From: a virus
IMG/VR virus record: IMGVR_UViG_3300045988_060029
DNA: 44,780 nt
Direction: 5' to 3' (one strand)
Under the pieces are notes generated by a model. It made no database searches and was not told where the DNA came from. It worked only from the letters and a program-made list of their open reading frames with translations. Each line of letters begins with the position of its first letter. Within the stretch, counting starts at the first letter, position 1. Below are positions 1,879 to 44,780 of the stretch, in pieces. The translations under genes were made by a program, and so were the position numbers.

Positions 1879-2451
1879 ATGAGGGTCGGTTATGTACGAG
1901 TCAGCACCGCAGAGCAAAATCCGGCGAGACAGGTGGAGCTTATGAAGTCCCTCGGTGTGGAGAAAGTCTTTCTCGACAAAATCAGTGGGAAGAATACGGA
2001 CAGACCGCAGTTTAATGAAATGCTGTCGTTTCTCCGTGATGGCGATACTCTGTATGTGGAGTCATTCTCAAGGCTCTCCCGTAGCACCAAAGACCTGCTG
2101 AACACGGTGGGTGTCCTGTCTGCCCGTGGCGTTCAGCTTGTGTCGGACAAAGAGAAAGTGGACACCAACACCCCGCAAGGGCGGTTCATGCTGACGGTGT
2201 TTGCGGCGTTGTCGGAGTTGGAGCGGGAGAATATCCTTGAGCGTCAGCGCGAGGGCATTGAGATTGCCAAAGCGGCGGGAAAATACAAAGGGCGTAAGCC
2301 GATTGCCGTGACGGACAGATTTCTCGGTGCGGCTCGGAGTTGGCAGGAGGGTTCTCTCCCACTGAAAGACGCCATTGAGCAGTCGGGGCTGTCGGAGTCC
2401 ACATTCTTTCGTAAGTGCAAACAGCAAGGGATAAGGAGGGTCGGTGTGTGA
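1879..2451 (+). CDS. Small serine recombinase (resolvase/invertase family, 190 aa)
   Basis: N-terminal VGYVRVSTAEQN with the catalytic Ser context, RLSR motif, C-terminal HTH, and the size typical of the Hin/Gin/Tn3-resolvase class. Confidence 0.9.
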   Translation: MRVGYVRVSTAEQNPARQVELMKSLGVEKVFLDKISGKNTDRPQFNEMLSFLRDGDTLYVESFSRLSRSTKDLLNTVGVLSARGVQLVSDKEKVDTNTPQGRFMLTVFAALSELERENILERQREGIEIAKAAGKYKGRKPIAVTDRFLGAARSWQEGSLPLKDAIEQSGLSESTFFRKCKQQGIRRVGV

Positions 2452-4730: not shown

Positions 4731-6158
4731 GTGGGAAATGTAATCGACACTTCCAAGCCTGTTGCGGAAACTCGACAGATGTTTGGGCGCAGAGTTATCA
4801 AGAGTAGCGTTACGGAAATCACCGATGAAAATGTCGTGGAAGTGTTACTCAAAGCATTGTCCATTCACGATCTGAACCGCTCGGAGATTGATTATCTTTG
4901 GGAGTATTACAAGGGAAAGCAACCGATTCTGAACCGCACCAAGGAGGTTCGCCCGGAAATTTGCAATCGTATTGTGGAAAACCGTGCGAATGAAATCGTG
5001 TCCTTTAAGGTCGGGTATCTGTGTGGAGAACCGATTCAGTATGTCGGCAAGAGCGGCGAGGAGTCCGTTACGGCGGCGATTACCCGCTTGAATGAGCTGA
5101 TGTTCGCGGAGGATAAAGCGTCTCAAGACCAAGAGATTGTAGAATGGCAGATGATTTGTGGAACGGCGTTCCGACTGGTTCTGCCGGACGCACGGGGCGA
5201 GGAAGATGAGTCCCCGTTCGAGCTGTATACGCTCGACCCGCGAGATACCTTTGTGGTGTACTCCAACGAAATCGGCAATAAGCCGCTTATGGCGGTGAAA
5301 TACAGCAAGGACGATAACGAGATTACCCGCTACTCCATTTATACGGAGAACCGCTACTATCTCGTGGAGGACGGTATTCTGAAAGAGTCCACCCCTCATG
5401 CGCTGAACATGATTCCCATTTTCGAGTACCCGGCGAATAATGCTCGGCTTGGCTCGTTCGAGATTGTTCTCCCCCTCCTCGATACGATGAACAACATCAC
5501 CTCCAACCGTATGGACGGTGTTGAGCAGGTGGTACAGGCGTTTATCAAGTTTATCAACTGTGACATCACCAAAGAGGAGTACGAGGAGTTTCTTACCCTC
5601 GGTGCAATTAAGGTGAAATCTGTGGACGGCGCGAACGCCGATGTGGGGGTTGTCACGACTGACCTCAATCAGACACAGACACAGACTTTGAAAGAGGATT
5701 GCTACAATTCCATTCTCACAATCTGCGGTATGCCGAACCGCAACGGCGGTAGCTCCACGAGCGACACTGGCGCGGCGGTACTTCTGCGAGACGGTTGGTC
5801 TCTCGCAGAAGCGAGAGCGAAAGACAGCGAAAATATGTTCAAAAAGGCTGAGAAGAAAATGCTCAAGCTCGTGTTGCGTATCTGCCGTGAGCTGAGTGAT
5901 TTTGATATTGCCCTTAAGGACATCGAATTGCAGTTCACCCGCCGTAATTACGAGAACATTCAGAGTAAGTCACAGGTGCTTACCACCATGCTCGATAATC
6001 CGAAGATTCACCCGCTCCTCGCTTTCCAACATTCCGGCTTGTTTATCGACCCGGAACGCGCTTACGCAATGAGCGTGAAGTATTACGAGCAGGAACAGGC
6101 GAAAGTGATTGAGCAGAAACCTGTGGAAAATCCGAACCCCGATGAGGACGATAAATGA
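4731..6158 (+). CDS. Portal protein (SPP1 gp6-like)
   Basis: GTG start after GAGGAGGG. YLWEYYKGKQPILNR…NRANEIVSFKVGY matches SPP1-type portals as I recall them. Position between terL and scaffold. Confidence 0.9.
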   Translation: MGNVIDTSKPVAETRQMFGRRVIKSSVTEITDENVVEVLLKALSIHDLNRSEIDYLWEYYKGKQPILNRTKEVRPEICNRIVENRANEIVSFKVGYLCGEPIQYVGKSGEESVTAAITRLNELMFAEDKASQDQEIVEWQMICGTAFRLVLPDARGEEDESPFELYTLDPRDTFVVYSNEIGNKPLMAVKYSKDDNEITRYSIYTENRYYLVEDGILKESTPHALNMIPIFEYPANNARLGSFEIVLPLLDTMNNITSNRMDGVEQVVQAFIKFINCDITKEEYEEFLTLGAIKVKSVDGANADVGVVTTDLNQTQTQTLKEDCYNSILTICGMPNRNGGSSTSDTGAAVLLRDGWSLAEARAKDSENMFKKAEKKMLKLVLRICRELSDFDIALKDIELQFTRRNYENIQSKSQVLTTMLDNPKIHPLLAFQHSGLFIDPERAYAMSVKYYEQEQAKVIEQKPVENPNPDEDDK

Positions 6159-6854: not shown

Positions 6855-7786
6855 TGGCTCATAAGATTTACGATAATTTCTATCTGTCGAACGAGATTGA
6901 AGACCAGTTCAATTCTCACCTCGACCTACAGCAGTTCTGCACCGTGGATAACTCCCTCGTGGGTACTGCGGGTATGACGCGCAAAATCAACCGTTACAGT
7001 GCAAGCAACGCCACTCAGAAGTTGGCTATGGGCGCGGGTAACACCGAAAGCATTGAGGTCACTTATGCTCCGTTCGAGTATAAGATTCTGATGGCTCAGA
7101 ACCGTTTCGAGTATTACGATGAGCAGGAAATGACCGACCCCATGCTCGTTCCCGTTGGTGTGCGTCACATGGGTACGGATATGTTCAACACCGTCAATGC
7201 TGACATTTTTGCAGAGTTCAACAAGGCAACGCAGGTCATTGTTGTTTCCGCACTCAACTTTGACGCTTTCGCGGACGCACAGGCTATGTATAACCTTGAG
7301 AACATCGAGGGCGTGAACTTCTTTGCGTTCGTCTCTCCGGCTGATGTGGCGGCTCTGCGTAAGGCTCTTGGTCTGAGCTTGCAGTATGTTGAGTCCTTTG
7401 TCCGTAGCGGTTATGTCGGTACGGTGGCGGGTGTCAACATCTATACCAAGAAAGACGCGGTTTCCGGCACTATCTGTACCGCTACCAAACAGGCGGTCAC
7501 TCTGTTCAACAAAAAGGGTGTTGAGGTCGAGACTCCTCCTCGCGATTCCAGTGACGCGAACACTCGTAAGAACACTATTTTCAGCCGCAAGTATTATCTC
7601 CCCGCGCTGACGGACGAGCGTTACGCGGTCAAGATTGTTAAGGGTACTGCGGCGGTAAGCACCGATACCACGGTTACGGCGGGTAAGACCTACTACACCA
7701 AGAGCGGTCTTGGCTATGTGGCGGTGGTTCCCGCAGAGGGTGATAGCCCGAAGACCAAGGGTTGGTACGAAATCACTGCGGCGTAA
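6854..7786 (+). CDS. Major capsid protein (HK97-fold class)
   Basis: 310 aa directly after the scaffold gene (TAATG coupling). The N-terminal YDNFYLSNEIEDQF…VDNSLVG pattern is recalled from a capsid family. Confidence 0.85.
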   Translation: MAHKIYDNFYLSNEIEDQFNSHLDLQQFCTVDNSLVGTAGMTRKINRYSASNATQKLAMGAGNTESIEVTYAPFEYKILMAQNRFEYYDEQEMTDPMLVPVGVRHMGTDMFNTVNADIFAEFNKATQVIVVSALNFDAFADAQAMYNLENIEGVNFFAFVSPADVAALRKALGLSLQYVESFVRSGYVGTVAGVNIYTKKDAVSGTICTATKQAVTLFNKKGVEVETPPRDSSDANTRKNTIFSRKYYLPALTDERYAVKIVKGTAAVSTDTTVTAGKTYYTKSGLGYVAVVPAEGDSPKTKGWYEITAA

Positions 7787-13600: not shown

Positions 13601-15119
13601 ATGGCAACCTGTTCTTGACAACGGGGAAACCATTGCAACGGCTATCGGTCTCGGTACGGCTCTGCTTGTCGGTATCGGCGTAGTGACTGCCGCTCTTGGC
13701 GCGGCTACGGTTGCAAGTGCGGGTCTGCTCCCGTTGGCTATCGGTCTCGGTACGGCTTTGCTTGTCGAACTGGCGGCGGCGTTCATCATATTTACGGAGA
13801 GTCTGATAGCGGTAGCCAATGAGCTTGGTGACAACCTCGCTCCCGCGCTCGACAGACTCAATGACAAGCTCCCGACCCTTTCCACCAACATGAGCGAGTT
13901 CGTAGACTTTATGACGGATTTCGCAGGTGAGGTCGTTCGGTACACAGAGGTTTCGGCTATTGCCGGACTGAGCGCAACCATTGACACCATCATCGGTTGG
14001 TTTACGCAAGACCCTGTTGAGAAACTGGCAGACGATGTAGAGAACATTTACAACCAAACCACTACCCTCAACGAAAAGCTGAACTTGGCTGTACCCGAAC
14101 TGAAAACGGCAATCGACCTGCTCAAGCAGTATAAGGGCTTCCTTACCGAAATGGAAACGCTCTGCAACAGTAATGTTGAGCTGTCCACGGGTATGTTCGT
14201 GAACATGAAAGAGGTCGGTCAGAAGCTCGTGACGGGATTTGTGGACGGTATCAAGTCCAAGTCCTCTGACTTCTCCAATGCGGCGAAAACACTGGTGGAC
14301 GGGTTCAAGAACTCGCTGAACACCAACGCCGCAACCTGCAAGTCGAGCTTCATTTCTTGGGCTTCCAACCTCAAGAACTGGTTTACCTCCGCGTCCTTTG
14401 GTGCAATCAACCGAACAACATTCGGCAACTACGCCAAGGATATTGTGAGCGGTTTCAACAACGGTATCACCAATAACTACGCTACGGCTAAGAGCGGTAT
14501 GGTATCGTTTGCGAATACCGTGAAGAACGCTTTTACGGAAATTGTCTCTTACAAGGTGTTCTATGACATTGCAAAAGATGTTATCAGCGGTTTCAACAAC
14601 GGTATCAACGATTTCTACGATACGACTCGACCGTATATGCGGCGTTGGGCGAATGACGCGGCGGCGGCATACAAAGCGGCGTTGGACTCCAACTCCCCGT
14701 CCAAGCGGTTTATGCGTATCGGTGAGGACACTGTTCTCGGCTACAACCTCGGTATCGCCAACCTCGGCGGCACGACAAAGGGCGTTGTGACGGATTGGGC
14801 GAACTCGTTTACAAGCGTAAACCCGACCATGAGCTTTGCCGTAGACACCTCCGCTCTGAAATACTACAGCAGTGATTCGTTCGCACAGTCTGTTTCCGCT
14901 GATGTGGCGGCGCACAGCACGGTTACTGCAACGGGCTTCAAGGAGGGAATGGAGGAGTTCTACAGAGAGTATATCGAACCTACCCTGTCGCAGATGGCAG
15001 ACGATATGCGTAGGCAAGCCGACAAGCAAGAACAGACCGTTGTTCAGATTGGCAACCGTGTTGTCAATGACGCGGTTACTACTCAGAAAAAAGCCAACGG
15101 CTATGTATTCGCACGATAA
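10674..15119 (+). CDS. Tape measure protein (1481 aa)
   Basis: GTGA coupling to the chaperone stop. Helical N-terminal ~40-aa repeats, a long Gly/Ala/Ile hydrophobic central block with a ~77-aa duplication (…WQPV…NG.T…), and C-terminal …SGFNNGI… repeats. Confidence 0.92.
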   Translation: MRTVSTTIEQLELEVQSSATSAVAQLDALASSLGKVKSATKGGVGLTAVAKQLTTLNTALNSISSTNADNLNKMAQGLQALSSCGNLKLSSSVANQISNLGTAVRSLNGTDFSSLGRLADALTPLSTIGKSNLNSFISQLQRLPQAVQGLNGVDIGGLGTQISELVSALSPLSQMGKNNLTSFVTQLGKIPALMQSLKTVNIGELASQVQQLADAFAPLATQMQAISSGFAAFPARIQKLITSTNNLSKSNDRASTSYVNLAAKIGIAIVAVKKAASVLAGFINKSNQYVEDLNLFTASMGEYASAAQEYAERVSEIVGIDPAEWLRNQGVFMTITKGFGVVSDRAYTMSRNLTQLGYDISSFFNIPFEEAFQKLQSGIAGELEPLRRLGYDLSVARLQQEAYTLGIEKKVSAMTQAEKAELRYYAIMTQVTTAQGDMARTLNAPANQLRVLQAQVTQCARAIGNIFIPALNAILPYAIAVAKVIRLIANAIASLFGFALPEIDYSGIGATVGGVADSTQDIGDGLGDATKKAKELKNALLGIDELNIISPPEDTSGSGAGGIGDIGGGGLGFDLPTYDFLDGAISSKVDEIVQKMKEWLGLNKEIDSWADLFDTRLGKILLTVGAIGAGLAAWKIAKSVADFVKYITSFKGFGAGWAGLGALGLLSDLNEFIGYFQDFLENGATFQNVVGMISEFTGAIGDCLIILGNLKIGGALKVVQGIGEIAVAIKDISESGVNWENANTAIRGLTNIAIGIGVFTGNLKVAAWGLAIQGFTSIITEIGANWDAIKQGDWSGVDKVTLIIGALEVLGGLAMALDVFSKLKEVATIGKASEAVTTVATATETLDTTVSTKLSPNLTSLAKNLGLGIVIVAEVAAAALLITGAIILLGEGLAQVGESWQPVINNGGTVLAAMGIGIGILAVVGIVTALLGSVGTPLIVNIALGTAILAELGIATGLFLVEIWAIGKGLDEIGQAWQPVLDNGETIATAIGLGTALLVGIGVVTAALGAATVASAGLLPLAIGLGTALLVELAAAFIIFTESLIAVANELGDNLAPALDRLNDKLPTLSTNMSEFVDFMTDFAGEVVRYTEVSAIAGLSATIDTIIGWFTQDPVEKLADDVENIYNQTTTLNEKLNLAVPELKTAIDLLKQYKGFLTEMETLCNSNVELSTGMFVNMKEVGQKLVTGFVDGIKSKSSDFSNAAKTLVDGFKNSLNTNAATCKSSFISWASNLKNWFTSASFGAINRTTFGNYAKDIVSGFNNGITNNYATAKSGMVSFANTVKNAFTEIVSYKVFYDIAKDVISGFNNGINDFYDTTRPYMRRWANDAAAAYKAALDSNSPSKRFMRIGEDTVLGYNLGIANLGGTTKGVVTDWANSFTSVNPTMSFAVDTSALKYYSSDSFAQSVSADVAAHSTVTATGFKEGMEEFYREYIEPTLSQMADDMRRQADKQEQTVVQIGNRVVNDAVTTQKKANGYVFAR

Positions 15120-17741: not shown

Positions 17742-18176
17742 ATGGCTTGGACAACGCCTAAAACAGACTGGTACGGTGTAACGAACCCCTCCGATGGGGT
17801 ATATACGGGAGACAGGTTCAACGCGGTCGATTTCAACCGTATCAAGAACAACCTCACCTATCTGCGTGAGTTGGCTCTCAAGATGTACGATGAGTTCTCT
17901 ATCGTCTCCCTCGGTGCTGACCGTACCTATTCGGATTACTTCTATGCTGATGAAATCAATCAGCTTGAGGAAAATCTGAAAACCATCAACAGCAAAACTC
18001 TCAAGAGGTCGTATGGCAACCCTCCGACCTATGTAGCAAACGGCAACACAATGGATTTTGCAGAGCTGAATCGGTTGGAACGCGCCATACTTGACCTCTA
18101 CGACAGACTCACCAATGAGTCTGAGGGGAGAAGAATGTTCACTTGGAATTTTGGAATGAGAGGAGGAGACCTGTAA
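17742..18176 (+). CDS. Tail-fibre-module protein (144 aa)
   Basis: Tightly packed after the baseplate gene. The MAWTTPKTDW… N-terminus is recalled from prophage fibre modules. Confidence 0.5.
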   Translation: MAWTTPKTDWYGVTNPSDGVYTGDRFNAVDFNRIKNNLTYLRELALKMYDEFSIVSLGADRTYSDYFYADEINQLEENLKTINSKTLKRSYGNPPTYVANGNTMDFAELNRLERAILDLYDRLTNESEGRRMFTWNFGMRGGDL

Positions 18177-18893
18177 ATGTCTTGGGAACTGTTACCCGTA
18201 AATTATACGGACGCTGTGTGGAGCGGTCTAAAACGGTACAACACCATCACCAATGAGGACGGTACGGTATCGTTCCAAGATGTGACTGCTTACAGCAACA
18301 AAGAAAAGTCCTTTTTTGGCGCGAGAGACGCGAACCGTATGAACGAAGCTCTCAATACCCTTATGTCGATGGTAGAAAACGGTTCTGACCTGTACGAAGC
18401 GTTTCAGAACTATTTCACCACACAGAAAGGGCTTTTTGAGAACGAAGCGGACTCCAAGCAGGACGGTTTTACCGCATATATTACTGCTTTGAAAGCGGAG
18501 GGGGACAATGTAATTAACTCCCTTAAAACTGATTATCGCACGGAAATGGACACCTTTGAGAGTCAGCAACAGGCACTATTCACGACTTGGTTCGAGTTCG
18601 TCAAGAGTCAGCTCGGAGAAGATGTTGCCGGAAATCTGCAAAATCAGATTACTGCTCTCGACACCAAAACGGACGGTTTTGACCCGCGCACAACTACTTT
18701 CTCTGCCGATGGAAAGACCATCACGGAAATCGACTCGGCAGGAAACAAGAAAATCGAAACCGTGTTCACTTCCGATACAGTTATCACGCAAAAGCTCTAT
18801 AAGAAAGAGTCAAACGGAAGTTATTCCCTCGTAAACACTAAGACCATCACATTCAGTGCAGACGGTCTAAACATCACAGAGGAGGTAGTGTAA
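18177..18893 (+). CDS. Tail fibre-associated protein (238 aa)
   Basis: Start abuts the upstream stop (TAAATG). Lies within the fibre module. Confidence 0.5.
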   Translation: MSWELLPVNYTDAVWSGLKRYNTITNEDGTVSFQDVTAYSNKEKSFFGARDANRMNEALNTLMSMVENGSDLYEAFQNYFTTQKGLFENEADSKQDGFTAYITALKAEGDNVINSLKTDYRTEMDTFESQQQALFTTWFEFVKSQLGEDVAGNLQNQITALDTKTDGFDPRTTTFSADGKTITEIDSAGNKKIETVFTSDTVITQKLYKKESNGSYSLVNTKTITFSADGLNITEEVV

Positions 18894-20828
18894 ATGTCTT
18901 GGGCAGAAGCAAAATGGACTGTTGACAGTCTGTTGCAGAAAATCGGGCAAGCCCCGAACAACATGAGGAGCTTTATCGCATACTCGCTTTCCGCGACCAG
19001 TATCGGCTTGAAGTTCCAAGAACCCGCCGACAGCTATGACGCGAACAACAATCTGATTTGTTCTGTGGGCGGTGTAATGATTCGCATGAGCGATACTGGT
19101 TATCCTACAAAGCCCTCAGAGGGGACGCTTGTAGTAAACAACACCAATCTCGGCGCGTATGTCAACACACCCTTTACGGTGAGCGGACTCACCAAGGGTA
19201 GAAAGTATTATTTTTCCGCGTTCCCTTATTCCGTACAGGGCGTTTACAACCTGTCGAGCAATGCGGCAAACAGAGCGGACGCAACTCCCGCCGCAGGTGA
19301 AATCGCCAATGTCACCATTTCTATTGACGATGATTCCGCGTTTTCCAGTGTGGTAGTCACCTGTGTCGATGAAACGGAGTCTGCGTCTACGCAGTCGGCA
19401 ACGCTCACCAAAACGAAGAAAACGGCTTCCTTTGTCGTGCCTATCGGTCATACCTATCATATCGAGTACGGTGCGGAGGACGGGTACAGCAAGCCGGATA
19501 ACACTACGCCGAAAGTTTCTGTGGCAGGTACGACCTCGAACTACACCGCAACCTACTACTATTTCACGGCTACGATTGCCGTTACCTACCCCGTAGGAGC
19601 GACCTGCACCTGTGAGTGTGGAAGTACAAAGTACACCGCCCCTAATACCTCCGGCAGTCACACTTTCCAAGTGCATAATGTCGGCACATGGACGGTAAAG
19701 GCGGTTTCCGGCTCTGATACAGACTCTAAGTCAGTATCTATCACTTCCTCCGGGCAGTCTCGCAGTGTGGAGCTGTCGTTCGTAAAAATCTACGGTATCA
19801 GCCGGGATATTACGGCTACCTCTCCCGCTTGGGCGAGAACGGATTCCGCTGTCGGCAAGACTGCTACCGCAACCGTAGGTACTGCAGCAGGTTCGAGTGA
19901 CTTCAACAACTGTTACCCTTGGAGCAGCATTGTCCGTGAAACCTTATCCACGGGAGATGTGATGGTGAAAATCCCTAAGTTTTGGTATCGCCGTTACCGT
20001 AGTGGAAATGTGGAATATCTCAAGATTGCGGATAAAGCCACGAGCGGGTTCACGCTTCACCCCGCGTTCAATCACGGCGGTGTGGCAAAGGATTATCTCT
20101 ATGTGGGTGCTTATAAGACCACGAGTGGTAACAAGTCCGCGTCCGGTGTAAGCCCGTTGGTAAATCAGACGAGAGCGACCATGCGTTCCAACGCGAAAGC
20201 AAAGGGTACGGGTTGGGGTATTATCGACATTGCCGCACTCTCCGCGATTCAAATGTTGATTCTCGTGGAATTTGCCAACAACAATGTGCAGTCTGTCATT
20301 GGGCGCGGCTACTGCGACAGTAACAGCTCTGCTCTCAGCACAGGTACTTGTAACAATGTCAGTGGTCTCACGGGCAGACCTGCCGGAACAGACGGCAAGG
20401 TTGATGTGGTTTGGCGCGGTATCGAGGGTCTGTGGGGTAATGTGTGGGAATGGGTCGATGGTGTCAACTGGAACAACGGCACTTACTATGTGTGCAACGA
20501 CCCGTCCAAGTACGCAGACGATACCACTACGAACTACACCGCCCTCTCCTTTAAGGGAGCAACCAACTGGTCTTCCAGTTATATCACGCAGGAGGGTCTT
20601 GACACTGGCAGTAATCCTCATGTCATGCTTCCGTCTGCCGCAGATAGCGGAAGTGAAACGACCTATGATTGTGACGCTTGTTGGTCTTCTACAGGTTGGC
20701 GCGTCTTCCGGCACGGCGGTGGTTGGCACAGTGGCTCGATCTGTGGTCTCTTTACGGCTAATTTGCACGATGACTCGTCCAACTCGGGCTCGGACCTTGG
20801 GTCGCGCCTGCTTTATATCCCCTCCTAA
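18894..20828 (+). CDS. Receptor-binding tail fibre; DGR target protein with C-terminal CLec/FGE-type variable domain
   Basis: C-terminal …LWGNVWEWVDG…WRVFRHGGGWHSGS… signature. The last ~45 codons contain the VR, which matches the downstream TR. Confidence 0.85.
   Translation: MSWAEAKWTVDSLLQKIGQAPNNMRSFIAYSLSATSIGLKFQEPADSYDANNNLICSVGGVMIRMSDTGYPTKPSEGTLVVNNTNLGAYVNTPFTVSGLTKGRKYYFSAFPYSVQGVYNLSSNAANRADATPAAGEIANVTISIDDDSAFSSVVVTCVDETESASTQSATLTKTKKTASFVVPIGHTYHIEYGAEDGYSKPDNTTPKVSVAGTTSNYTATYYYFTATIAVTYPVGATCTCECGSTKYTAPNTSGSHTFQVHNVGTWTVKAVSGSDTDSKSVSITSSGQSRSVELSFVKIYGISRDITATSPAWARTDSAVGKTATATVGTAAGSSDFNNCYPWSSIVRETLSTGDVMVKIPKFWYRRYRSGNVEYLKIADKATSGFTLHPAFNHGGVAKDYLYVGAYKTTSGNKSASGVSPLVNQTRATMRSNAKAKGTGWGIIDIAALSAIQMLILVEFANNNVQSVIGRGYCDSNSSALSTGTCNNVSGLTGRPAGTDGKVDVVWRGIEGLWGNVWEWVDGVNWNNGTYYVCNDPSKYADDTTTNYTALSFKGATNWSSSYITQEGLDTGSNPHVMLPSAADSGSETTYDCDACWSSTGWRVFRHGGGWHSGSICGLFTANLHDDSSNSGSDLGSRLLYIPS
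20695..20814 (+). repeat. DGR variable repeat (VR)
   Basis: Ungapped match to 20903-21022 at an offset of 208 nt. There are 19 mismatches, all opposite TR adenines. The core without the first 4 nt is 20699-20814. Confidence 0.9.
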
Positions 20829-20833
20829 GGGGG

Positions 20834-20856
20834 TGCGGGGGATTTTCTCCCCCGCA
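20834..20856 (+). promoter_or_regulatory. GC hairpin downstream of VR (DGR homing-associated stem-loop and/or terminator)
   Basis: TGCGGGGGA (20834-20842) pairs with TCCCCCGCA (20848-20856) around a 5-nt loop. It is present after VR but not after TR. Confidence 0.6.
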
Positions 20857-20902
20857 TAAGTGGGTCGATACAAAACAGATAGAACTTTATAAGGCGAACA
20901 GT

Positions 20903-21022
20903 AAAAGCGCGTCTTCCAACACGGCGGTAATTGGAACAATGGCTCGAAATGTGGTCTCTTTACGGCTAATTTGAACAATGACTCGTCCAACTCGAACTCG
21001 AACATTGGGTCGCGCCTACTTT
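20903..21022 (+). repeat. DGR template repeat (TR)
   Basis: Non-coding copy rich in AAC/AAT triplets, 114 nt upstream of the RT start. It has 32 adenines, 19 of which differ in VR. Confidence 0.9.
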
Positions 21023-21136
21023 TGTTATACAGCACAAACCTATACAAGATACTGTCTCGCCGTACCCATTGGTAAAAAATAGTTTGGAGGGATAGGGTTA
21101 GTAAGTCTCTTGAAACCCCTATAAGAAACAAAAGCA

Positions 21137-22297
21137 ATGAAAAGAATTGGCTTTCTACACGAACAGATAGTTTCAGAAGAAAATTGCAGACTGGCTATCA
21201 TCAATGCCGCAAAGCATAAGAAAAAGCGCAGAAATGTTCAAAAAGTCATGGATAATTTGGATTTCTACGCGAAAGACCTGTCTGAGCGGTTGGTTCGTTT
21301 GGATTTCACCTCACCGTATCGGACTCGTATCATAAAGGACGGTCTGTCGGGGAAAGAGAGGGAGTTACAGATTCCCGCGTTCTATCCCGACCAATGCGCT
21401 CACCATGCTATTGTGCAGGTGCTACAGCCGCTCATTATGAAATCCTCCTATTATTGGAGCTGTGCCAATATCCCAAACAGGGGGATTGACCGTGCCGCAA
21501 AAGGAGTGGAACGAGCTACCATGCGAGACATCAAACACGCAAAATACTGTGTGAAGATGGACATTCACAAGTTCTATCCGTCAATCCCGCACGACAAGCT
21601 CAAGGAACATTTACAGCGGAAAATCAAGGACAAAAAGGCACTTGGTATTATCCATTTGGTAATCGACTCGTACCATAGCTCTCCCGGACACGGTATACCT
21701 ATCGGGAATTATACCTCGCCGTGGCTTGCGGAGTTTTATCTACAGTCGTTGGATTACTTCATCAAGCAAACCCTCGGTATACGCTATTATGTCCGCTACG
21801 CCGATGATTTAGTCTTAATTGACAATAACAAACGGAAGCTCCGAAAAGCAATGTACGCGGTCATGGAGTTTGTAGGAAAACTCGGCTTGGAGATAAAGCA
21901 CGATTACCAGTTATTTCGTATTCAACGAAACTGCAAAAGCAGACAGCACCGTAGAGGGCGAAAGATTGACTTTGTAGGTCGCTGTTTCGGTATCAGAACC
22001 ACGACCATACGAAAAAGACGCGCTCTTGCGCTTATGCGGCAAAGCCGCCACATTCAGAAAATCCAAAAGCGAAACGGGGTCGTATCATTCCGTATGGCGG
22101 CGGGTTTCCTGTCGCGGTGTTCCTGTTTCAAGCATACTGACTCGCTCAGTATGAAAAAGAAATATTGCGATACAGTTAAAATCAGAAAATTAAAGGAGGT
22201 AGTCAGAAATGAGAGTAAAAGGAAATGTCTCTCCCGTAACCCTGTCGATGGAGTCTTACCTGCCGTTGGAGGGGTATGTAGAGGTCAGACTGCGTGA
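21137..22297 (+). CDS. DGR reverse transcriptase
   Basis: RT motifs …IPIGNYTSPWLAEFYL… and YVRYADDLVL (YxDD), plus …IDFVGRCF… thumb-like region. Adjacent to TR. Confidence 0.88.
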   Translation: MKRIGFLHEQIVSEENCRLAIINAAKHKKKRRNVQKVMDNLDFYAKDLSERLVRLDFTSPYRTRIIKDGLSGKERELQIPAFYPDQCAHHAIVQVLQPLIMKSSYYWSCANIPNRGIDRAAKGVERATMRDIKHAKYCVKMDIHKFYPSIPHDKLKEHLQRKIKDKKALGIIHLVIDSYHSSPGHGIPIGNYTSPWLAEFYLQSLDYFIKQTLGIRYYVRYADDLVLIDNNKRKLRKAMYAVMEFVGKLGLEIKHDYQLFRIQRNCKSRQHRRGRKIDFVGRCFGIRTTTIRKRRALALMRQSRHIQKIQKRNGVVSFRMAAGFLSRCSCFKHTDSLSMKKKYCDTVKIRKLKEVVRNESKRKCLSRNPVDGVLPAVGGVCRGQTA

Positions 22298-22526
22298 AAA
22301 CATCAAAGAAGTCACTGACATTGACCCGCAGACGGAAACCTCTGTCACCATGTTCGAGTACGATGAGTACACTTTCCTCTTGAAAAACCGTGAGGGCTTG
22401 CAAGAGGACATCGAGAACAATCTCAGCGATTGGCTTATCACTGGCAGAACGCTTGAGGTCAACGAAAGCGCAAGTATCGTGCAGGACATGAAAGCCGCAC
22501 TGGAAATTTTGGAGGTGAACAGATAA
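22209..22526 (+). CDS. Hypothetical acidic protein (105 aa)
   Basis: ATG after AAAGGAGG. Overlaps the RT 3' end by 89 nt. Confidence 0.55.
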   Translation: MRVKGNVSPVTLSMESYLPLEGYVEVRLRENIKEVTDIDPQTETSVTMFEYDEYTFLLKNREGLQEDIENNLSDWLITGRTLEVNESASIVQDMKAALEILEVNR

Positions 22527-22873
22527 TGGCACAGCTTTATATCGACAACGCGAAAAAGCTAAAGGTTCGGATTGACAATAATCAGAAAATTGTCGATACC
22601 GTAGAAGCGGCAGGTGGTATTGAAACCACTCTCACACAGTCTGACAAAATCGGCTTTGACTGGCTGAACTTCTATGTGAACAAGGTTTTGGTTCTACAGG
22701 AGTACAAAGAGCAGGAAAATCCTGTTGGCACTGCCGATAACCCCTTTGTATGGGAAAAAAGCATGGCTCTTATCGCAACCGGGTTCTATGTCCATGATGG
22801 TGTCCGTAAGGTTTGGGTCGGTGAGACAGGCGTTACCGCCGCGTGGGACGATAGTAATTGGGAGGTCATGTAA
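22526..22873 (+). CDS. Hypothetical protein (115 aa)
   Basis: TAATG coupling to the upstream gene. Lies between the fibre and lysis modules. Confidence 0.55.
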   Translation: MAQLYIDNAKKLKVRIDNNQKIVDTVEAAGGIETTLTQSDKIGFDWLNFYVNKVLVLQEYKEQENPVGTADNPFVWEKSMALIATGFYVHDGVRKVWVGETGVTAAWDDSNWEVM

Positions 22874-22911
22874 ATGTAAATCCTCACATTAAACGAAAGG
22901 AATTTAGCTAA

Positions 22912-23232
22912 ATGGTTTCTGAAAGCACACTGATTATCAGCATTGTAGGGGCGGTCTTTGCAAGCACAGGCTTTTGGGCGTTCCTCACAAGTCTTATCCA
23001 AAGCAAAAAGTCTAAAGACCGCGCGGAGGGGCAAATGCTGAAAGGTCTTGGGCACGACCGCATTTGCTATCTCGGTGAGTGTTATATTCAGCGCGGGTAT
23101 ATCACCAAAGACGAATATGAGAACCTGCATGATTATTTATACTTACCGTATAAAAAATTGGGTGGAAACGGTACTGCCGAAAAGATTATGAAAGAGATTG
23201 ACCGTCTCTCACTCAAAGACAAGGAGGATTGA
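22912..23232 (+). CDS. Membrane-anchored protein of the lysis region (106 aa)
   Basis: One N-terminal TM segment (LIISIVGAVFASTGFWAFLTSLI) followed by a soluble domain …KKLGGNGTAEK…. Confidence 0.5.
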   Translation: MVSESTLIISIVGAVFASTGFWAFLTSLIQSKKSKDRAEGQMLKGLGHDRICYLGECYIQRGYITKDEYENLHDYLYLPYKKLGGNGTAEKIMKEIDRLSLKDKED

Positions 23233-23235
23233 CCT

Positions 23236-23334
23236 ATGGAAGAAAAGTCGTATTTCCAAACTCACGGCGAAGAAATCACGCCGGAAATGTTGGACGAACT
23301 GAGTAACGGGAAAGGAGAAGACGAAGATGAGTAA
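23236..23334 (+). CDS. 32-aa acidic peptide (MEEKSYFQTHGEEITPEMLDELSNGKGEDEDE)
   Basis: ATG after GGAGGA. The stop overlaps the endolysin start. Read by hand (below the track cutoff). Confidence 0.35.
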   Translation: MEEKSYFQTHGEEITPEMLDELSNGKGEDEDE

Positions 23335-24328
23335 CAGCCCTCTCGTAAACTACACGCGGATTTCCCCCAATAAGACAAGTCCGCGCAGAAACAAAATCGA
23401 CACTATCACCATTCACTGTGTCGTGGGGCAGTGTTCCGTGGAAACGCTCGGCAATATTTTTGCACCGACCTCCCGACAGGCAAGCTCCAACTACGGTGTT
23501 GGTGCAGACGGTAAAATCGGTATGTATGTCGAGGAAAAAGACCGCTCTTGGTGTACCTCAAGCGCGGCAAACGACAACCGCGCTATCACCATCGAGGTCG
23601 CAAGCGATACCAAACACCCTTATGCGGTGAATGACAAGGCGTATGCCGCAATGCTCGACCTTGTAACCGATATTTGCCGCCGTAACGGTATCAAAAAGCT
23701 CGTATGGAGTACGGGCAAGAACAAGCGCATGAATCACCTTGGCGGTTGCAATATGACCGTTCACCGCGATTATGCGAACAAATCCTGTCCCGGCGATTAT
23801 CTGTATAACCGTCATGGTGAAATAGCGGCAGAGGTCAACAGGCGGCTCGGTGCGGCAGTTGATACTCCGACTGAGGACAAGCCTACTACCAGCTCTGTTA
23901 AGGCGGGAGATACCGTTAAAATCTCCTCCACGGCTACTTATTACGGCGGCAAGGCGATTCCTGCTTGGGTGAAAGCAAAGAACTGGATTGTCCGCGAGGT
24001 CAGCGGTGACAGAGCGATTATCGACAAGTCTGTGGACGGGAAGAACGCGATTTGCAGTCCTATCAACACGAAGTTCTTGAGTGTCGTTTCTGCCGCTTCT
24101 ACGCCCTCTCAGAGCGCGTGGACACCGCAGGTAGGTGATTATGTCTCGTTCACTGGAAAAACTCACTACGCAAGCTCTAACGGCGATAGAGCGGTGTCCT
24201 GTAAGGGCGGCAAGGCGAAAATCACGCAAATCTATGCAAAGGGCAAGCACCCTTATCATCTTGTCCATGTCGATGGAGAGTCTACGGTCTACGGTTGGGT
24301 TGACCGCAATACTTTCACCAAAGTGTAA
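23327..24328 (+). CDS. Endolysin: N-acetylmuramoyl-L-alanine amidase (Amidase_2/PGRP type) with two C-terminal SH3-like repeats
   Basis: …ITIHCV…NYGVG…HRDYANKSCPG… amidase signature. The C-terminal half is duplicated (GDTVKISS…/GDYVSFTG…). Confidence 0.88.
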   Translation: MSNSPLVNYTRISPNKTSPRRNKIDTITIHCVVGQCSVETLGNIFAPTSRQASSNYGVGADGKIGMYVEEKDRSWCTSSAANDNRAITIEVASDTKHPYAVNDKAYAAMLDLVTDICRRNGIKKLVWSTGKNKRMNHLGGCNMTVHRDYANKSCPGDYLYNRHGEIAAEVNRRLGAAVDTPTEDKPTTSSVKAGDTVKISSTATYYGGKAIPAWVKAKNWIVREVSGDRAIIDKSVDGKNAICSPINTKFLSVVSAASTPSQSAWTPQVGDYVSFTGKTHYASSNGDRAVSCKGGKAKITQIYAKGKHPYHLVHVDGESTVYGWVDRNTFTKV

Positions 24329-24342
24329 AGGAGGTTGACGGT

Positions 24343-24618
24343 ATGCGGAGGGTAAAGAAAAAGCCACCGAAAGAATTTTCAAAGAAAATCCTCATCGTGG
24401 CGGGAATTATCAATGCGGTCGTTATCGTCTTTACGATGGTAATGATTTGGCGTACTCTCGACCTTTCGCCGCTTGCCTACCTTATACCGTCAGTAGCCGC
24501 CGAAGTTGCCACGGGTACGGGATTCTATTATTCAAAAGCAAAGGTCGAGAACCGAATAAAACTGATGAGACAAAACAAAGTCACACCAAACGAAACACAT
24601 TTTTCTGAAAATTACTGA
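24343..24618 (+). CDS. Holin-like protein with two TM segments (91 aa)
   Basis: TM1 ILIVAGIINAVVIVFTMVMIW, TM2 LAYLIPSVAAEVATGTGFYY, and a charged C-terminus. Adjacent to the lysin. Confidence 0.6.
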   Translation: MRRVKKKPPKEFSKKILIVAGIINAVVIVFTMVMIWRTLDLSPLAYLIPSVAAEVATGTGFYYSKAKVENRIKLMRQNKVTPNETHFSENY

Positions 24619-24630
24619 GGAGGTATCACC

Positions 24631-24924
24631 ATGACTGACATTACCAATGTTGTTTCCGCTGTTATCACCCTGCTCGTAGCAGTCATTACCACTTTCCTTA
24701 TCCCTTATCTGAAAGAGAAAGTGGACGCTGAGAAGTTCGAGAAAATCAAGGCGTGGACGAAAGTTGCGGTCGAAGCCGCAGAAATGATTTACAACGGCGC
24801 GGGTCGCGGCGCGGAGAAGAAAGCCTATGTACTGGAATACTTGAACAGCAAGGGTTATAAGCTCGACTCCGACACCATTGACAAGCTGATTGAGTCCGCT
24901 GTCCTTGAACTGAAAAAGAGCTGA
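24631..24924 (+). CDS. Holin, LL-H-like family (97 aa)
   Basis: N-terminal TM segment plus …KVAVEAAEMIY…AEKKAYVLEYLNSKGYKLD…IDKLIESAV, which matches the LL-H holin pattern as I recall it. Confidence 0.65.
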   Translation: MTDITNVVSAVITLLVAVITTFLIPYLKEKVDAEKFEKIKAWTKVAVEAAEMIYNGAGRGAEKKAYVLEYLNSKGYKLDSDTIDKLIESAVLELKKS

Positions 24925-24937
24925 TTTAATCCCGTTC

Positions 24938-25046
24938 AAGTAGTTAAAGTAGTGGAAAATCCGTTTTTGCGTGTAACTTCCTCTAAGTACGCGCGTATTA
25001 GGTGAAAGTTTACGCAAAAACCGAAAAACAACTACTTTAACTACTT
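24938..25046. repeat. Palindromic element copy A (~109 bp), homologous to 42941-43053
   Basis: Arms AAGTAGTTAAAGTAGT (24938-53) and ACTACTTTAACTACTT (25031-46), with an inner arm TTTTTGCGT…ACGCAAAAA. The 21-mer TTTTGCGTGTAACTTCCTCTA (24965-85) is identical to 42968-88. Confidence 0.85.
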
Positions 25047-25081
25047 CATCTCGTCCCGTGGCAAAGAAAAAGAACGCCGAT

Positions 25082-26629
25082 TCAATCAGCGTTCTCTATC
25101 CTATAAACAAATCCAAAGGTGTGTTTGATGAAGAACACAGAGTTCGGATTTGCACTTTTTGGTGGAGCATAACACTCAATATCCGAACTCGTGAGAGTAG
25201 CGGTATTATTGCCCGAAAGATTGAATGTTAGCACAATCCGCTTCCCACCATCTTCATCGTCATACACATATACAGAGTTTACCAATGTATCAATCACGCG
25301 CCGTTGGTAATCCTCATCATCAACATTCCCGCTCTTGAACGAAGTAAGCCAATACCTAATGCGGCTCTCGTTCAAGAGCGGTTTTTTCATTTCCTCACGG
25401 GCGATACGCCCCTCAATATCAGACTTCTCCTGTTCCAGTTCGTCAAGGCGGTCTTTGGTAGCAGAAGTAATGATACCTTGCTCTATTGCAGAGACAAGGT
25501 TCTTTATTTTTTTCTGAACATCTTTCAGTTCAGCGTTGAGACCGTCCAAGTAGGTGGTATCTGCCGATTCTTTTTCGATGATTTCCATAGCCCGTTTTGC
25601 GATAAGGGCAATATTCTCATCAGTCAACACATTCTGAACTGTGTAGCGGACTACCAGTTTCTCTATCCAGTCTTTTCGTTCGGATTTCTTTTTACAGGCG
25701 TGTTCCCGCTTGGCTTTTGTGCATTTGTAGTAATAATGAACCTGCCCTGTTTTTGATGTGCCACTCTCACCGACCATCGGAGACCCGCAGTGACCGCAGA
25801 ACAGCTTGGTAGTCAGCAGATAATTTTCGTGAGCTTTCGCTTTCGCCCGTGCTTTCCCGTTGTGTTTGAGCATAGCTTGTACTTTCTCAAACAGTACCTT
25901 GTCTATGATAGCGGGCATACCATCGGGAATAACAATGTCCATGAGCTTGTATGTGCCGATATATTTCTCATTTCGGAGAATCGTTCGGAGACTGTTTTTA
26001 TTAAAAGCGTTGCCCCTTGCAGTTTTGTACCCACGCTCGTTGCAATAGGCAATGATTTGTGTCGCGGACATTCCATCGGCGTATAGTTGAAAAATCTCTT
26101 GTACGATTTTTGCTCCCGTTGGGTCAATCGCATACTTTCTGTCCTCACCCACGGTATACCCAAGCAAAAGGTTTGCCCCTCCCGTGGCAAGCCCTTGGAG
26201 GGCGTTTTCTCTGATACCGCGCTTGATGTTACGGGCAAGATTTTCAGAGTAGTATTCGGCATACCCCTCAAGGACGGATTCAAGGATAATTCCCTCCGGC
26301 GTGTCCGGCATGGGTTGTTTCGCATAGTAGACTCTCACACCGTTCTTTTTGAGCTTTGCCTTGTAGATAGCAGAGTCATAGCGATTACGAGCGAAACGGT
26401 CAAGGGTATACATTATCACCGCTTCAAATTGTCCCTTTTCGCTGTCTTTAATGAGACGCTGAAAGCTCGGACGGTTATCTGTTTTGCCGGAAATCGCCCG
26501 GTCAATGTATTCATTTATGATGGTGAACCCATTTTTAAGGGCAAACTCGTGACATTCTCTGAGCTGACCCTCTATAGATTCCTCTCTTTGGTTGTGGCTC
26601 GAATATCGAGCGTAAATTACCGCTTTCGT
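25082..26629 (-). CDS. Large serine recombinase (integrase), 515 codons, no canonical start codon
   Basis: The track ORF 25082..26419 lacks the catalytic domain. The same frame continues upstream as TKAVIYARYSSHNQREESIEGQL… to an in-frame TGA at 26647-26645. GGAGGTGAG lies 3 nt before ACG (26629-26627). Zn-ribbon CGHCG…CTK and a coiled coil are present downstream. Confidence 0.8.
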   Translation of the reverse strand, partial: TKAVIYARYSSHNQREESIEGQLRECHEFALKNGFTIINEYIDRAISGKTDNRPSFQRLIKDSEKGQFEAVIMYTLDRFARNRYDSAIYKAKLKKNGVRVYYAKQPMPDTPEGIILESVLEGYAEYYSENLARNIKRGIRENALQGLATGGANLLLGYTVGEDRKYAIDPTGAKIVQEIFQLYADGMSATQIIAYCNERGYKTARGNAFNKNSLRTILRNEKYIGTYKLMDIVIPDGMPAIIDKVLFEKVQAMLKHNGKARAKAKAHENYLLTTKLFCGHCGSPMVGESGTSKTGQVHYYYKCTKAKREHACKKKSERKDWIEKLVVRYTVQNVLTDENIALIAKRAMEIIEKESADTTYLDGLNAELKDVQKKIKNLVSAIEQGIITSATKDRLDELEQEKSDIEGRIAREEMKKPLLNESRIRYWLTSFKSGNVDDEDYQRRVIDTLVNSVYVYDDEDGGKRIVLTFNLSGNNTATLTSSDIECYAPPKSANPNSVFFIKHTFGFVYRIENAD

Positions 26630-38197: not shown

Positions 38198-38665
38198 GTG
38201 ACAGAAATCTATCGAGGTGACATTTACTACATAATGCCGTTTTATACGGTCACGGGTTCTGAACAGAGAGCAGGTAGACCCGGCGTAGTCGTGTCCAACG
38301 ACATAAACAATCGACACTCTCCCAATGTGGAAATCGTATTCTTGACCTCGCAGGAAAAGAAACCGCTTCCCACCCATGTCCCTGTGATGTGCCGCGTTCC
38401 GTCCACTGCCCTCTGTGAGAACATTCAGACGGTATCAAAGGAACGGCTTTCCACATTCATTAAATCCTGCACCACGAAAGAGCTGAAAAACATTGACAAC
38501 GCTCTGCTCGTGTCTCTCGGTATCAACTCCCCGTTTCCTGTCGGGGGGGGGATTGATGAAAACGCGCCGCAGAAAAGCACACCCACAGAGGTGGAGCGCG
38601 ACCTCTACAAAACGCTGTATGAACAAATTCTTGATAAACTGGTAGGAGGAAACACCAATGATTAA
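38198..38665 (+). CDS. MazF/PemK-family toxin (endoribonuclease fold) with ~36-aa C-terminal extension; no adjacent antitoxin recognised
   Basis: …RGDIYY…GSEQRAGRPGVVVSNDINNRHSPNVEIVFLTSQEKKPLPTHV…ENIQTVSKERL… aligns with EndoA/MazF as I recall it. GTG start after AAAGGAGG. Confidence 0.8.
   Translation: MTEIYRGDIYYIMPFYTVTGSEQRAGRPGVVVSNDINNRHSPNVEIVFLTSQEKKPLPTHVPVMCRVPSTALCENIQTVSKERLSTFIKSCTTKELKNIDNALLVSLGINSPFPVGGGIDENAPQKSTPTEVERDLYKTLYEQILDKLVGGNTND
38543..38551 (+). repeat. G9 homopolymer tract inside the MazF-like gene
   Basis: GTC GGG GGG GGG ATT, exactly where the MazF-like domain ends. With G10 the reading would be GGG GAT TGA. Confidence 0.9.
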
Positions 38666-44435: not shown

Positions 44436-44780
44436 ATGAAATTCAAGACAACACAAAAGGCAATTAAGGCGAATTACAACACAATTATTTGTGTTCCCTA
44501 TTGCGGTTTACAAAACCTTTTGAATTATGAAAGCCCGGTTGCGTACACGGTACGCCGTGAAGGGTGGGCGGCTGATATTTACGATATGGGCGGCGGGGTT
44601 GCTATTGTAACAGGTTATGCCCCGTTCGGGAGTGTTCGCCCGTCCTATGAATTGCGGGAACGGTACGAAAAGCAAGCGGAAATAATACGCGATATATACC
44701 GCTATTCCACAAAATTAAATGATACGAGAAATAGGTTGCGCGAATTGCAAGCGGCATTTATTGAGGAGGTAACACGCCAT
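44436..44780 (+). CDS. Conserved small protein; the ORF runs off the window end and closes at 56-61 in the circular form (116 aa)
   Basis: ATG after GAGGAGG. There are 115 codons to the window end, then AAA TAA after the 55-bp overlap. Confidence 0.65.
   Translation, partial: MKFKTTQKAIKANYNTIICVPYCGLQNLLNYESPVAYTVRREGWAADIYDMGGGVAIVTGYAPFGSVRPSYELRERYEKQAEIIRDIYRYSTKLNDTRNRLRELQAAFIEEVTRH
44726..44780. repeat. Second copy of the 55-bp terminal overlap
   Basis: Identical to 1-55. Confidence 0.95.

Follow-up and report, generated by a model that had tools for sequence, protein, structure and literature searches.

The 44,780-nucleotide viral contig IMGVR_UViG_3300045988_060029, referred to at its full length as the window, carries a genuine diversity-generating retroelement (DGR) made up of a variable repeat (VR) at the 3' end of a gene for a tail-fibre-like protein, a non-coding template repeat (TR) and a gene for a reverse transcriptase (RT). 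It is highly probable that this is a functional DGR of the accessory-free kind, with target gene, TR and RT but no gene for the accessory protein Avd, that it belongs to a temperate siphovirus-like phage of gut Clostridia with a complete, circularly assembled genome, and that it diversifies a tail-fibre tip with a C-type lectin (CLec) fold. The element is probably active, as judged from the sequence comparisons set out below. A DGR at this site had been proposed in a first-pass annotation made from the letters of the window, and the proposal is upheld by mismatches that are confined to adenines, by the VRs of related copies, by the motifs of the RT and by the fold of the target. New over that annotation are the absence of an Avd gene, a structured RNA between TR and RT, and a helix that encloses TR.

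Template and variable repeats

VR and TR form an ungapped direct repeat of 116 nt at a constant offset of 208 nt (Table 1). The two copies differ at 15 positions, every one of them opposite one of the 28 adenines of TR, whilst none of the 88 non-adenine positions differs; the chance of all 15 mismatches falling on 28 adenines among 116 positions is 1.4e-11. Re-alignment thus agrees with the first-pass annotation on the gapless offset and on the confinement of the mismatches to adenines, although not on the extent of the repeat, which had been given as 120 nt (20695-20814 and 20903-21022) with 19 mismatches at 19 of 32 adenines. The four additional mismatches at the 5' end (20695-20698, GTTG versus AAAA) lie outside the homology, and these positions show no variation in eight related genomes. 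This brings the count down to 15 of 28.

One of the 15 mismatches, at position 20810, reads CTA in TR and CTG in VR. As G is found here in every VR examined, it represents a fixed difference between the initiation of mutagenic homing (IMH) sequence of VR and its counterpart in TR (IMH*), not the outcome of mutagenesis. Its removal leaves 27 mutable adenines, 14 of which are changed in the window's genome. The 27 fall in 15 codons, specifying amino acids (aa) 606-635 of the target. When read in the VR frame, the TR adenines lie mostly in the AAC, AAT and AAA triplets that had been described earlier (ten AAY and one AAA), and the others are in CAA, CAC, ACG, GAC and ATT. The coding capacity of the mutable adenines is approximately 1.8e16 DNA variants and 1e15 protein variants, and a stop codon can be reached only from the single AAA codon. 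Neither strand of the window holds a second VR, and the 92 nt separating VR from TR contain no open reading frame (ORF).

The GC-rich 3' end of VR, which is invariant among copies, may be assigned as IMH by analogy with the prototype DGR of phage BPP-1 (PMC5758913, PMC3240598). Beyond it lies the 9-bp GC hairpin of the first-pass annotation, which is indeed present after VR and absent after TR. By sequence, there is thus a putative IMH/IMH* pair together with a GC-rich inverted repeat after VR only, an arrangement by which DGRs are recognised. In BPP-1, the hairpin after VR is needed for efficient homing (PMC3240598). In the window it is preceded by a smaller hairpin enclosing the stop codon of the target gene, and the two fold jointly at -16.3 kcal/mol (z -4.5). 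As no T-run follows the 20834-20856 hairpin, it is not a typical terminator.

Across the clade, VR is followed by G5, 2-4 nt and then G5-loop-C5, and the G5...C5 hairpin is kept in most relatives. The C5 arm thus has two possible G5 partners. A hairpin around the stop codon occurs in 34 of 41 loci, a count obtained under permissive rules (G-U allowed, at least 4 bp) and without a null comparison. On the sense strand, the hairpin loops of the clade are pyrimidine-rich, whereas BPP-1-type phage DGRs have GRNA loops of 4 nt there (PMC3240598). The Rfam family Clostridiales-2 (RF02937) was considered for the VR hairpin (20821-20875) and rejected, having scored 18.6 bits against a threshold of 58.6 and having reached threshold in none of 20 related loci. 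The resemblance is probably just the shared GC hairpin.

Variation among related genomes

For a first retrieval, the TR adenines were replaced by N in the search pattern. It yielded eight IMG/VR contigs, whose identity to the window is 92-99% over several kb. In the alignment of these eight genomes, 27 of the 28 A-templated columns of VR are variable and none of the 88 non-A columns is. The non-coding parts of the element are far better conserved than coding sequence, with variation in 1 of the 116 columns of TR, 1 of the 92 of the VR-TR spacer and 5 of the 114 of the TR-RT spacer, as against 11-13% of columns in the flanking coding sequence.

A second retrieval, made as a safeguard against bias, held the flanks fixed and left 87 interior bases free, and covered viral and metagenome contigs. 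It returned 22 loci with 18 distinct VRs. Compared with TR, these VRs differ in 299 of 486 adenine cells and in 0 of 1080 non-adenine cells; at the level of columns, all 27 A-templated positions vary and none of 60 non-A positions does. The VRs differ from one another at 11-24 of the 27 A positions, in genomes that are 1-4% diverged elsewhere. TR is identical in seven of eight viral loci and carries zero substitutions in nine of the 13 metagenome loci in which it was found. Among copies of the element, TR is thus conserved while VR varies, as is characteristic of DGRs. The bases at A-templated positions in the 18 VRs are A (38%), G (34%), T (17%) and C (11%). This spectrum is that of VRs already past selection, and either RT bias or selection on the protein may be its source.

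At the protein level, an alignment of 16 members of the target's 90% cluster shows up to 10 residues per column at aa 606-635 and is almost invariant elsewhere. The size of the cluster (5566 members, with 500-2300 in those of neighbouring proteins) was dropped as a measure of hypervariation: cluster sizes scale with protein length and cluster breadth and offer no clean control, so that column-level counts were used. Further afield, the compact order VR-TR-RT, with A-biased mismatches, is retained by more than 100 relatives from viral contigs and GTDB genomes, including some whose RT identity is as low as 33%. TR lies approximately 170-390 nt after VR in these loci, and RT approximately 105-220 nt after TR.

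It might be supposed that the element is a DGR by descent that is now inactive, the VR differences being old diversification inherited by separate lineages, and the comparison of assembled consensus sequences, in which the window's VR is a single sequence, leaves some room for this view. It is very improbable, however, when genomes that are 1-4% diverged carry VRs differing at 11-24 of 27 A positions, and when none of the 18 VRs differs from TR at a non-A position while adjacent coding sequence varies at 11-13% of its columns. In addition, TR, both spacers and the RNA helices described below are under strong purifying selection, and the RT ORF is intact and retains every catalytic motif.

The target tail-fibre protein

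The target gene is the last of a tail module in which the tape measure is followed by proteins of 740, 144 and 238 aa. Residues 345-644 of its product match phrog_5302, annotated 'tail protein' (3.6e-65). Pfam yields no match to the protein, even at E <= 10, and a sequence search of the PDB gave nothing significant. In a full-length AlphaFold2 (AF2) model (pLDDT 84), a helix at the N-terminus is followed by three beta-sandwich (FN3/Ig-like) domains, with the CLec domain at the C-terminus, and with this model Foldseek retrieves FN3 arrays plus TaqVP. The C-terminal part was also modelled separately (aa 330-644; pLDDT 86.5, pTM 0.90), and its best matches in the PDB are the DGR variable proteins TaqVP (5vf4, E 2.6e-13), Mtd (1yu4, 3.9e-3) and TvpA (2y3c, 7.4e-3). 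Structures of the formylglycine-generating enzyme (FGE) rank after TvpA, as weak fold matches at E of about 1e-2. Among the viral models of BFVD it matches numerous 'tail collar fiber' proteins (TM 0.8-0.89), with crAss-like phage fibres among them.

In the first-pass annotation, a GNVWEWV signature had been taken to indicate a CLec/FGE-fold target. The signature is present, as WGNVWEWVDG at aa 514-523, and the assignment stands at the level of fold, where a confident model finds DGR variable proteins as its best matches; it does not extend to the Pfam family FGE-sulfatase (PF03781), to which no match was obtained at E <= 0.01 or at E <= 10. VR is thus located at the 3' end of a target ORF with a predicted C-type-lectin fold, as expected of a DGR, and the secondary structure of the AF2 model places most of the variable residues in loops between the last strands. 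Downstream of the DGR cassette there is a gene from a family that includes tail-fibre assembly chaperones. The target may well be the receptor-binding protein of the phage.

The reverse transcriptase

The RT was first recognised by a YADD box and by its position 114 nt after TR, and the ORF does carry the sequence RYADD. Both RYADD and IGNYTSPW/IGNYTSP are invariant in an alignment of the RT family (35 homologues), such that an RT with the catalytic YxDD and with a motif 4 beginning [I/V/L]G adjoins the repeats, as in other DGRs. Motif 4 of DGR RTs is [I/V/L]GxxxSQ, of which the I-G is close to invariant (PMC3521204), whereas throughout this family it ends SP. As SP is a documented minority variant, found in 15 of 155 DGR RTs (PMC3521204), and as the Q187P substitution in the Bordetella RT (bRT) leaves the frequency of misincorporation at template adenines unaltered (PMC7826257), SQ is to be regarded as typical rather than required. 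Two bRT residues that promote adenine mutagenesis, R74 and I181 (PMC7826257), align with R75 and with the Ile of IGNYTSP. The C-terminal part of the protein is strongly basic (18 K/R in aa 263-312; pI of the RT 10.2), a property that has been described for DGR RTs (PMC3521204). Since most homologues are of 359-365 aa, the conserved protein ends at about aa 365 (position ~22231) and the last ~21 aa of the 386-aa ORF are an unconserved extension overlapping the next gene.

The RT could alternatively be that of a group II intron or a retron, with the 116-nt repeat an unrelated partial duplication of the 3' end of the fibre gene. The product name given by the Joint Genome Institute (JGI) is 'retron-type reverse transcriptase', and the top NCBIfam match is the group II intron RT/maturase TIGR04416, followed by Drt3a and the best retron model. 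NCBIfam contains no DGR model, however, and all of these scores are far below the respective cut-offs (101 versus 300 bits, 93 versus 200 and 66 versus 235). The best solved relative in a sequence search of the PDB is 8ub7_A (328 aa, deposited as 'Reverse transcriptase', 3.2e-16), which is presumably the Bordetella bRT. Its score of 62.8 bits is close to the 60.2 bits of a group II intron-type RT, and sequence score alone is not decisive here. Against an intron or a retron, the Rfam scan at gathering thresholds found no group II intron RNA and no retron RNA in the window, the sole RT-linked RNA being RT-18 (see below), and the conserved protein of ~365 aa is without a maturase or endonuclease extension. 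Moreover, adenine-only mismatches are impossible by ordinary divergence (P ~1e-11) and the pattern is seen in every relative. An intron or retron origin can thus be set aside with near certainty.

RNA structure around the template repeat

The spacer between TR and the RT gene contains a match to the whole of the Rfam model RT-18 (RF03021), lying directly upstream of the RT gene. The window's copy is a marginal scorer, at 41.6 bits versus a gathering score of 41.3; scores in relatives are 43-72 bits, with the more distant relatives at 60-72. The elements of RT-18 are a P1 hairpin (21063-21074), an A-run (A6) to 21079, the helices P2 (21082-85/21126-29), P3 (21092-97/21117-22) and P4, and a conserved UAGUA...GAAA loop of the sarcin-ricin type. 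Assignment at the gathering threshold is backed by covariation of the helices. In 37 sequences, P1, P3 and P4 are 97.5% paired, compared with 69% in shuffles and 31-41% with partners slid; compensatory changes are found in 11 of 12 RT-18 pairs, and the observed score is reached by 0 of 500 shuffles. P2 covaries by inspection.

TR itself is enclosed by a helix, one arm of which precedes TR and the other P1 of RT-18. The arms change among relatives while complementarity stays, and cognate duplexes average -18.7 kcal/mol compared with -10.6 for non-cognate ones. In relatives the 3' arm always abuts P1, and in most loci 0-6 nt separate the end of the 5' arm from TR. Only ~27 nt lie between TR and the 3' arm. 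Minimum free energy folding of the whole TR RNA is no better than that of shuffles (z +0.8), so that the evidence for structure rests on covariation and not on energy.

In BPP-1, cDNA synthesis requires the cPRT Stop, of which a short stem-loop and unpaired adenosines form part; between TR and the primer strand there is a stem-loop that binds Avd (bioRxiv 10.1101/2023.10.23.563531). The TR-enclosing helix, P1 hairpin and A6 run of the window may be counterparts of this cPRT Stop. A cryo-EM-based survey of DGR RNA elements covered Avd-containing DGRs only (bioRxiv 10.1101/2023.10.23.563531). The motif of the BPP-1 spacer RNA is RT-10 (PMC5737381), and JAR3D assigns a sarcin-ricin loop both to RT-18 and to RT-10 (PMC13085918). 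Only RT-10 was tied to a DGR by Weinberg et al. (2017), the other RT motifs being a matter of speculation (PMC5737381); the RT-18 of the window sits between TR and RT of a DGR.

Table 1. Features of the retroelement and its surroundings (positions in the window)
Feature	Position	Strand	Description and basis
Target gene	18894..20828	+	644-aa tail-fibre-like protein; ORF, phrog_5302, AF2 and Foldseek
C-terminal CLec-fold domain	19926..20825	+	aa ~345-644, carries VR; AF2 and Foldseek
VR	20699..20814	+	3' end of the 644-aa ORF, aa 602-641; mutable part 20710-20796
IMH-like invariant 3' end of VR, TTGGGTCGCGCCTGCTTT	20797..20814	+	GC-rich; differs from IMH* at 20810 (G versus A) in every copy
Small hairpin CCCCT-CCTA-AGGGG	20819..20832	+	Encloses stop codon; 3' arm is the conserved G5 tract; DNA fold
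GC-rich inverted repeat, TGCGGGGGA TTTTC TCCCCCGCA	20834..20856	+	9-bp stem (7 GC), 5-nt loop; 19 nt after VR; absent after TR
TR-enclosing helix, 5' arm, GGCGAACAGUA	20893..20903	+	3 nt before TR; pairs with 21050-21061
TR	20907..21022	+	Non-coding; 28 adenines; IMH* is 21005-21022
TR-enclosing helix, 3' arm, UACUGUCUCGCC	21050..21061	+	1 nt before RT-18 P1; pairs with 20893-20903
RT-18 RNA (RF03021)	21063..21137	+	Rfam match to whole model; ends at RT start codon
RT	21137..22297	+	386-aa ORF, start 114 nt after TR; RVT_1 1.5e-18, phrog_1423 1.3e-85
orf105	22209..22526	+	105-aa acidic protein, pI 4.3; strong Shine-Dalgarno; start inside RT ORF; homologous to N-terminal domain of tail-fibre assembly chaperones

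Absence of Avd and the role of orf105

Avd is present in approximately 74% of DGRs and is not a defining feature of the class. In the window, no match to the Avd family (PF05635) was obtained with Pfam among 99 ORFs of 80-190 aa on both strands. The small ORFs adjoining the RT are acidic, with pI values of 4.3 and 4.6; the average pI of Avd proteins is 9.5 (PMC5758913). As no Avd is detected, the element is placed in a known accessory-free architecture, 'Architecture A' of Wu et al., to which 75 DGRs were assigned in a survey of 372 (given there as 29%; PMC5758913). The element thus appears to be Avd-independent.

The gene that follows the RT, orf105, was considered as a DGR accessory. In 101 of 144 loci, a member of its family comes after the RT gene and overlaps with it. 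This holds down to 33% RT identity, a range over which the upstream tail genes are not kept. Wu et al. have reported an acidic accessory, 'CH1', that occurs only in Avd-less DGRs (PMC5758913), and orf105, likened to it by description, may be the same protein. The candidate was demoted because long members of the family are tail-fibre assembly chaperones, matching Pfam Phage_tail_APC (PF16778, 3.7e-20) and PHROG tail-fibre-assembly families. Membership of such a family explains linkage to the fibre gene without a role in reverse transcription, and orf105 is probably not part of the retroelement.

These data also bear on whether an accessory is needed but has been missed, be it a divergent Avd elsewhere in the phage or host, or the acidic 105-aa protein in a CH1-like capacity. 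Avd is poorly conserved (PMC5758913), and the persistence of the orf105 family beside the RT, together with the restriction of CH1 to Avd-less DGRs, would fit such a scheme. It is nevertheless rather unlikely, though not to be dismissed lightly. Apart from the lack of a Pfam match and the chaperone identity of the long orf105 relatives, Wu et al. saw no avd at a distance where a DGR is itself without the gene, and proposed an Avd-independent mechanism (PMC5758913). In addition, the stretch from TR to the 3' arm of the helix is ~27 nt, compared with ~58 nt in BPP-1, where it holds the Avd-binding stem-loop.

A model for the accessory-free element

In the mechanism proposed here by analogy with BPP-1, an RNA spanning positions ~20890-21137 would be made, possibly by read-through from the tail operon. 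TR would be held in a loop closed by the helix between 20893-20903 and 21050-21061. This helix, the adjacent P1 hairpin and the A-run would act as a cPRT Stop, whilst the rest of RT-18, with its sarcin-ricin-type loop, would serve as the RT-binding part. The RT would copy TR to cDNA, misincorporating opposite adenines, and the cDNA would then replace VR, its 3' end guided by IMH and by the GC hairpin that is unique to VR. In this scheme the transcript boundaries, the priming site and the role of each RNA element are putative.

It is also conceivable, and is suggested tentatively as a little less than an even prospect, that the element belongs to a clade of two-part DGRs consisting of the RT and its own RNA, in which the TR-enclosing helix and RT-18 do the positioning job that Avd does in BPP-1. 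The Avd-binding stem-loop would then be missing because the helix and RT-18 carry out the positioning.

A number of points weigh against the overall interpretation of the element as a functional accessory-free DGR. The genome comparisons are of assembled consensus sequences, and would bear only indirectly on activity in the window's own genome. The SP ending of motif 4 departs from the DGR consensus, and the closeness of the PDB scores has been noted. A divergent Avd could escape Pfam or come from the host. Upstream of TR, nothing convincing in the way of a promoter came to light. Finally, a search for an equivalent of Sp A56-G57 and for a template:primer duplex gave a candidate pairing of ACAA (21044-47) with UUGU (21022-25), which was rejected, as it is not conserved in relatives.

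Comparison with known systems

In BPP-1 (mtd-avd-TR-brt), as in the window, a CLec-fold phage fibre tip is diversified at its C-terminus and the TR adenines lie in AAY codons. The two share an IMH-like GC-rich end, a GC hairpin after VR only and, in the RT, R74 and I181 or their equivalents; in both, the RNA after TR carries a sarcin-ricin-type loop, within RT-10 in BPP-1 and RT-18 in the window. Unlike BPP-1, the window has no avd gene, a mere 92 nt separate its VR from TR, the stretch from TR to the helix (~27 versus ~58 nt) leaves little space for a stem-loop that binds Avd, and the RT motif ends SP and not SQ. The hairpin loop also differs, in that a 5-mer rich in pyrimidines takes the place of GRNA on the sense strand, and a G5 tract precedes the hairpin. 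The 644-aa target, with its three beta-sandwich domains, resembles Mtd distantly in fold (E 3.9e-3).

The combination of target, TR and RT core without an avd, HRDC or MSL gene resembles 'Architecture A1' and the avd-less Lineage 3 of Wu et al. (2018; PMC5758913). Accessory-free DGRs in that survey are often phage-associated and have a CLec-type VR at the target C-terminus, as in the window (PMC5758913). Lineage 3A is confined to Bacteroides, whereas the RT clade of the window occurs mainly in phages of Clostridia and Bacilli, and the likeness drawn here is one of architecture. Structurally, the VR domain is matched best by TaqVP (5vf4; E 2.6e-13, TM ~0.5-0.6), a DGR variable protein that likewise has the CLec fold. 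TaqVP differs in that identity is 16% and in being a cellular protein, not a phage fibre, without an N-terminal beta-sandwich array.

The source phage

The window is a whole JGI contig, the first 55 nt (1-55) of which are identical to the last 55 (44726-44780), forming a terminal direct repeat. The identical ends indicate a circularly assembled contig, and it is therefore probably a complete phage genome of ~44.7 kb. Its phage genes include an SPP1-type portal, a tape-measure protein, an amidase endolysin, a large serine recombinase, an ERF/YqaJ recombination pair, a D5-type primase-helicase and a MazF toxin. Near relatives are found in Oscillospiraceae, Acutalibacter, Lacrimispora and Lachnospiraceae assemblies, and a Ligaoa zhengdingensis protein belongs to the 90% cluster of the target. 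Several proteins of the phage are found sequence-identical on at least 1000 contigs. Megablast against INPHARED phages gave no match, and nor did an exact-pattern scan of GTDB genomes.

A catalytic N-terminus (AVIYARYSSHNQ) for the large serine recombinase (25082-26419, minus strand, reaching ~26600) is encoded in frame upstream of the first ATG, GTG or TTG, suggesting either a non-canonical start codon or a 5'-truncated gene. A second, small serine recombinase of 190 aa (1879-2451, plus strand; Resolvase domain, 8.3e-43), of the resolvase/invertase size class, adjoins the packaging genes. The toxin is of the PemK/MazF type (38198-38665, plus strand; 2.1e-19) and is encoded in the replication/early region.

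The 115-aa ORF after orf105 (22528-22912) is a replaceable cassette, being absent or swapped in the otherwise collinear loci L002 and L003; in an Oscillospiraceae prophage (L009), an XkdX gene occupies this site. Another related viral contig (L018, 76% RT identity) has a tmRNA gene at its edge (7282-7671, minus strand), which suggests that it integrates beside ssrA. In the IMG/VR contig L008, the last 90 nt (13785-13874) match window positions 5267-5356 on the opposite strand, directly after a stretch that is collinear with 17858-25210; this points to a misassembly or rearrangement in that contig.

Significance

DGRs acting on the tail fibres of gut phages are well documented and the accessory-free architecture is recognised, so that the existence of this DGR is in itself ordinary. 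To our knowledge, the mechanism of the accessory-free class has not been studied. Of interest to specialists are the way in which the RNA of an Avd-less DGR is organised and the link to RT-18, an orphan Rfam motif here placed between TR and RT in a DGR. A conserved cPRT-Stop-like helix, hairpin and A-run without an evident Avd-binding stem-loop offer a testable picture of Avd-independent reverse transcription. If the two-part reading is true, this would be a natural minimal DGR and the orphan RT-18 would gain a function; engineered targeted mutagenesis is a field in which a two-component DGR would be attractive as well. An unusually clean signal, with 0 of 1080 non-A changes, in a complete and very common phage makes this element a good natural model for host-range diversification in the phages of Clostridia.

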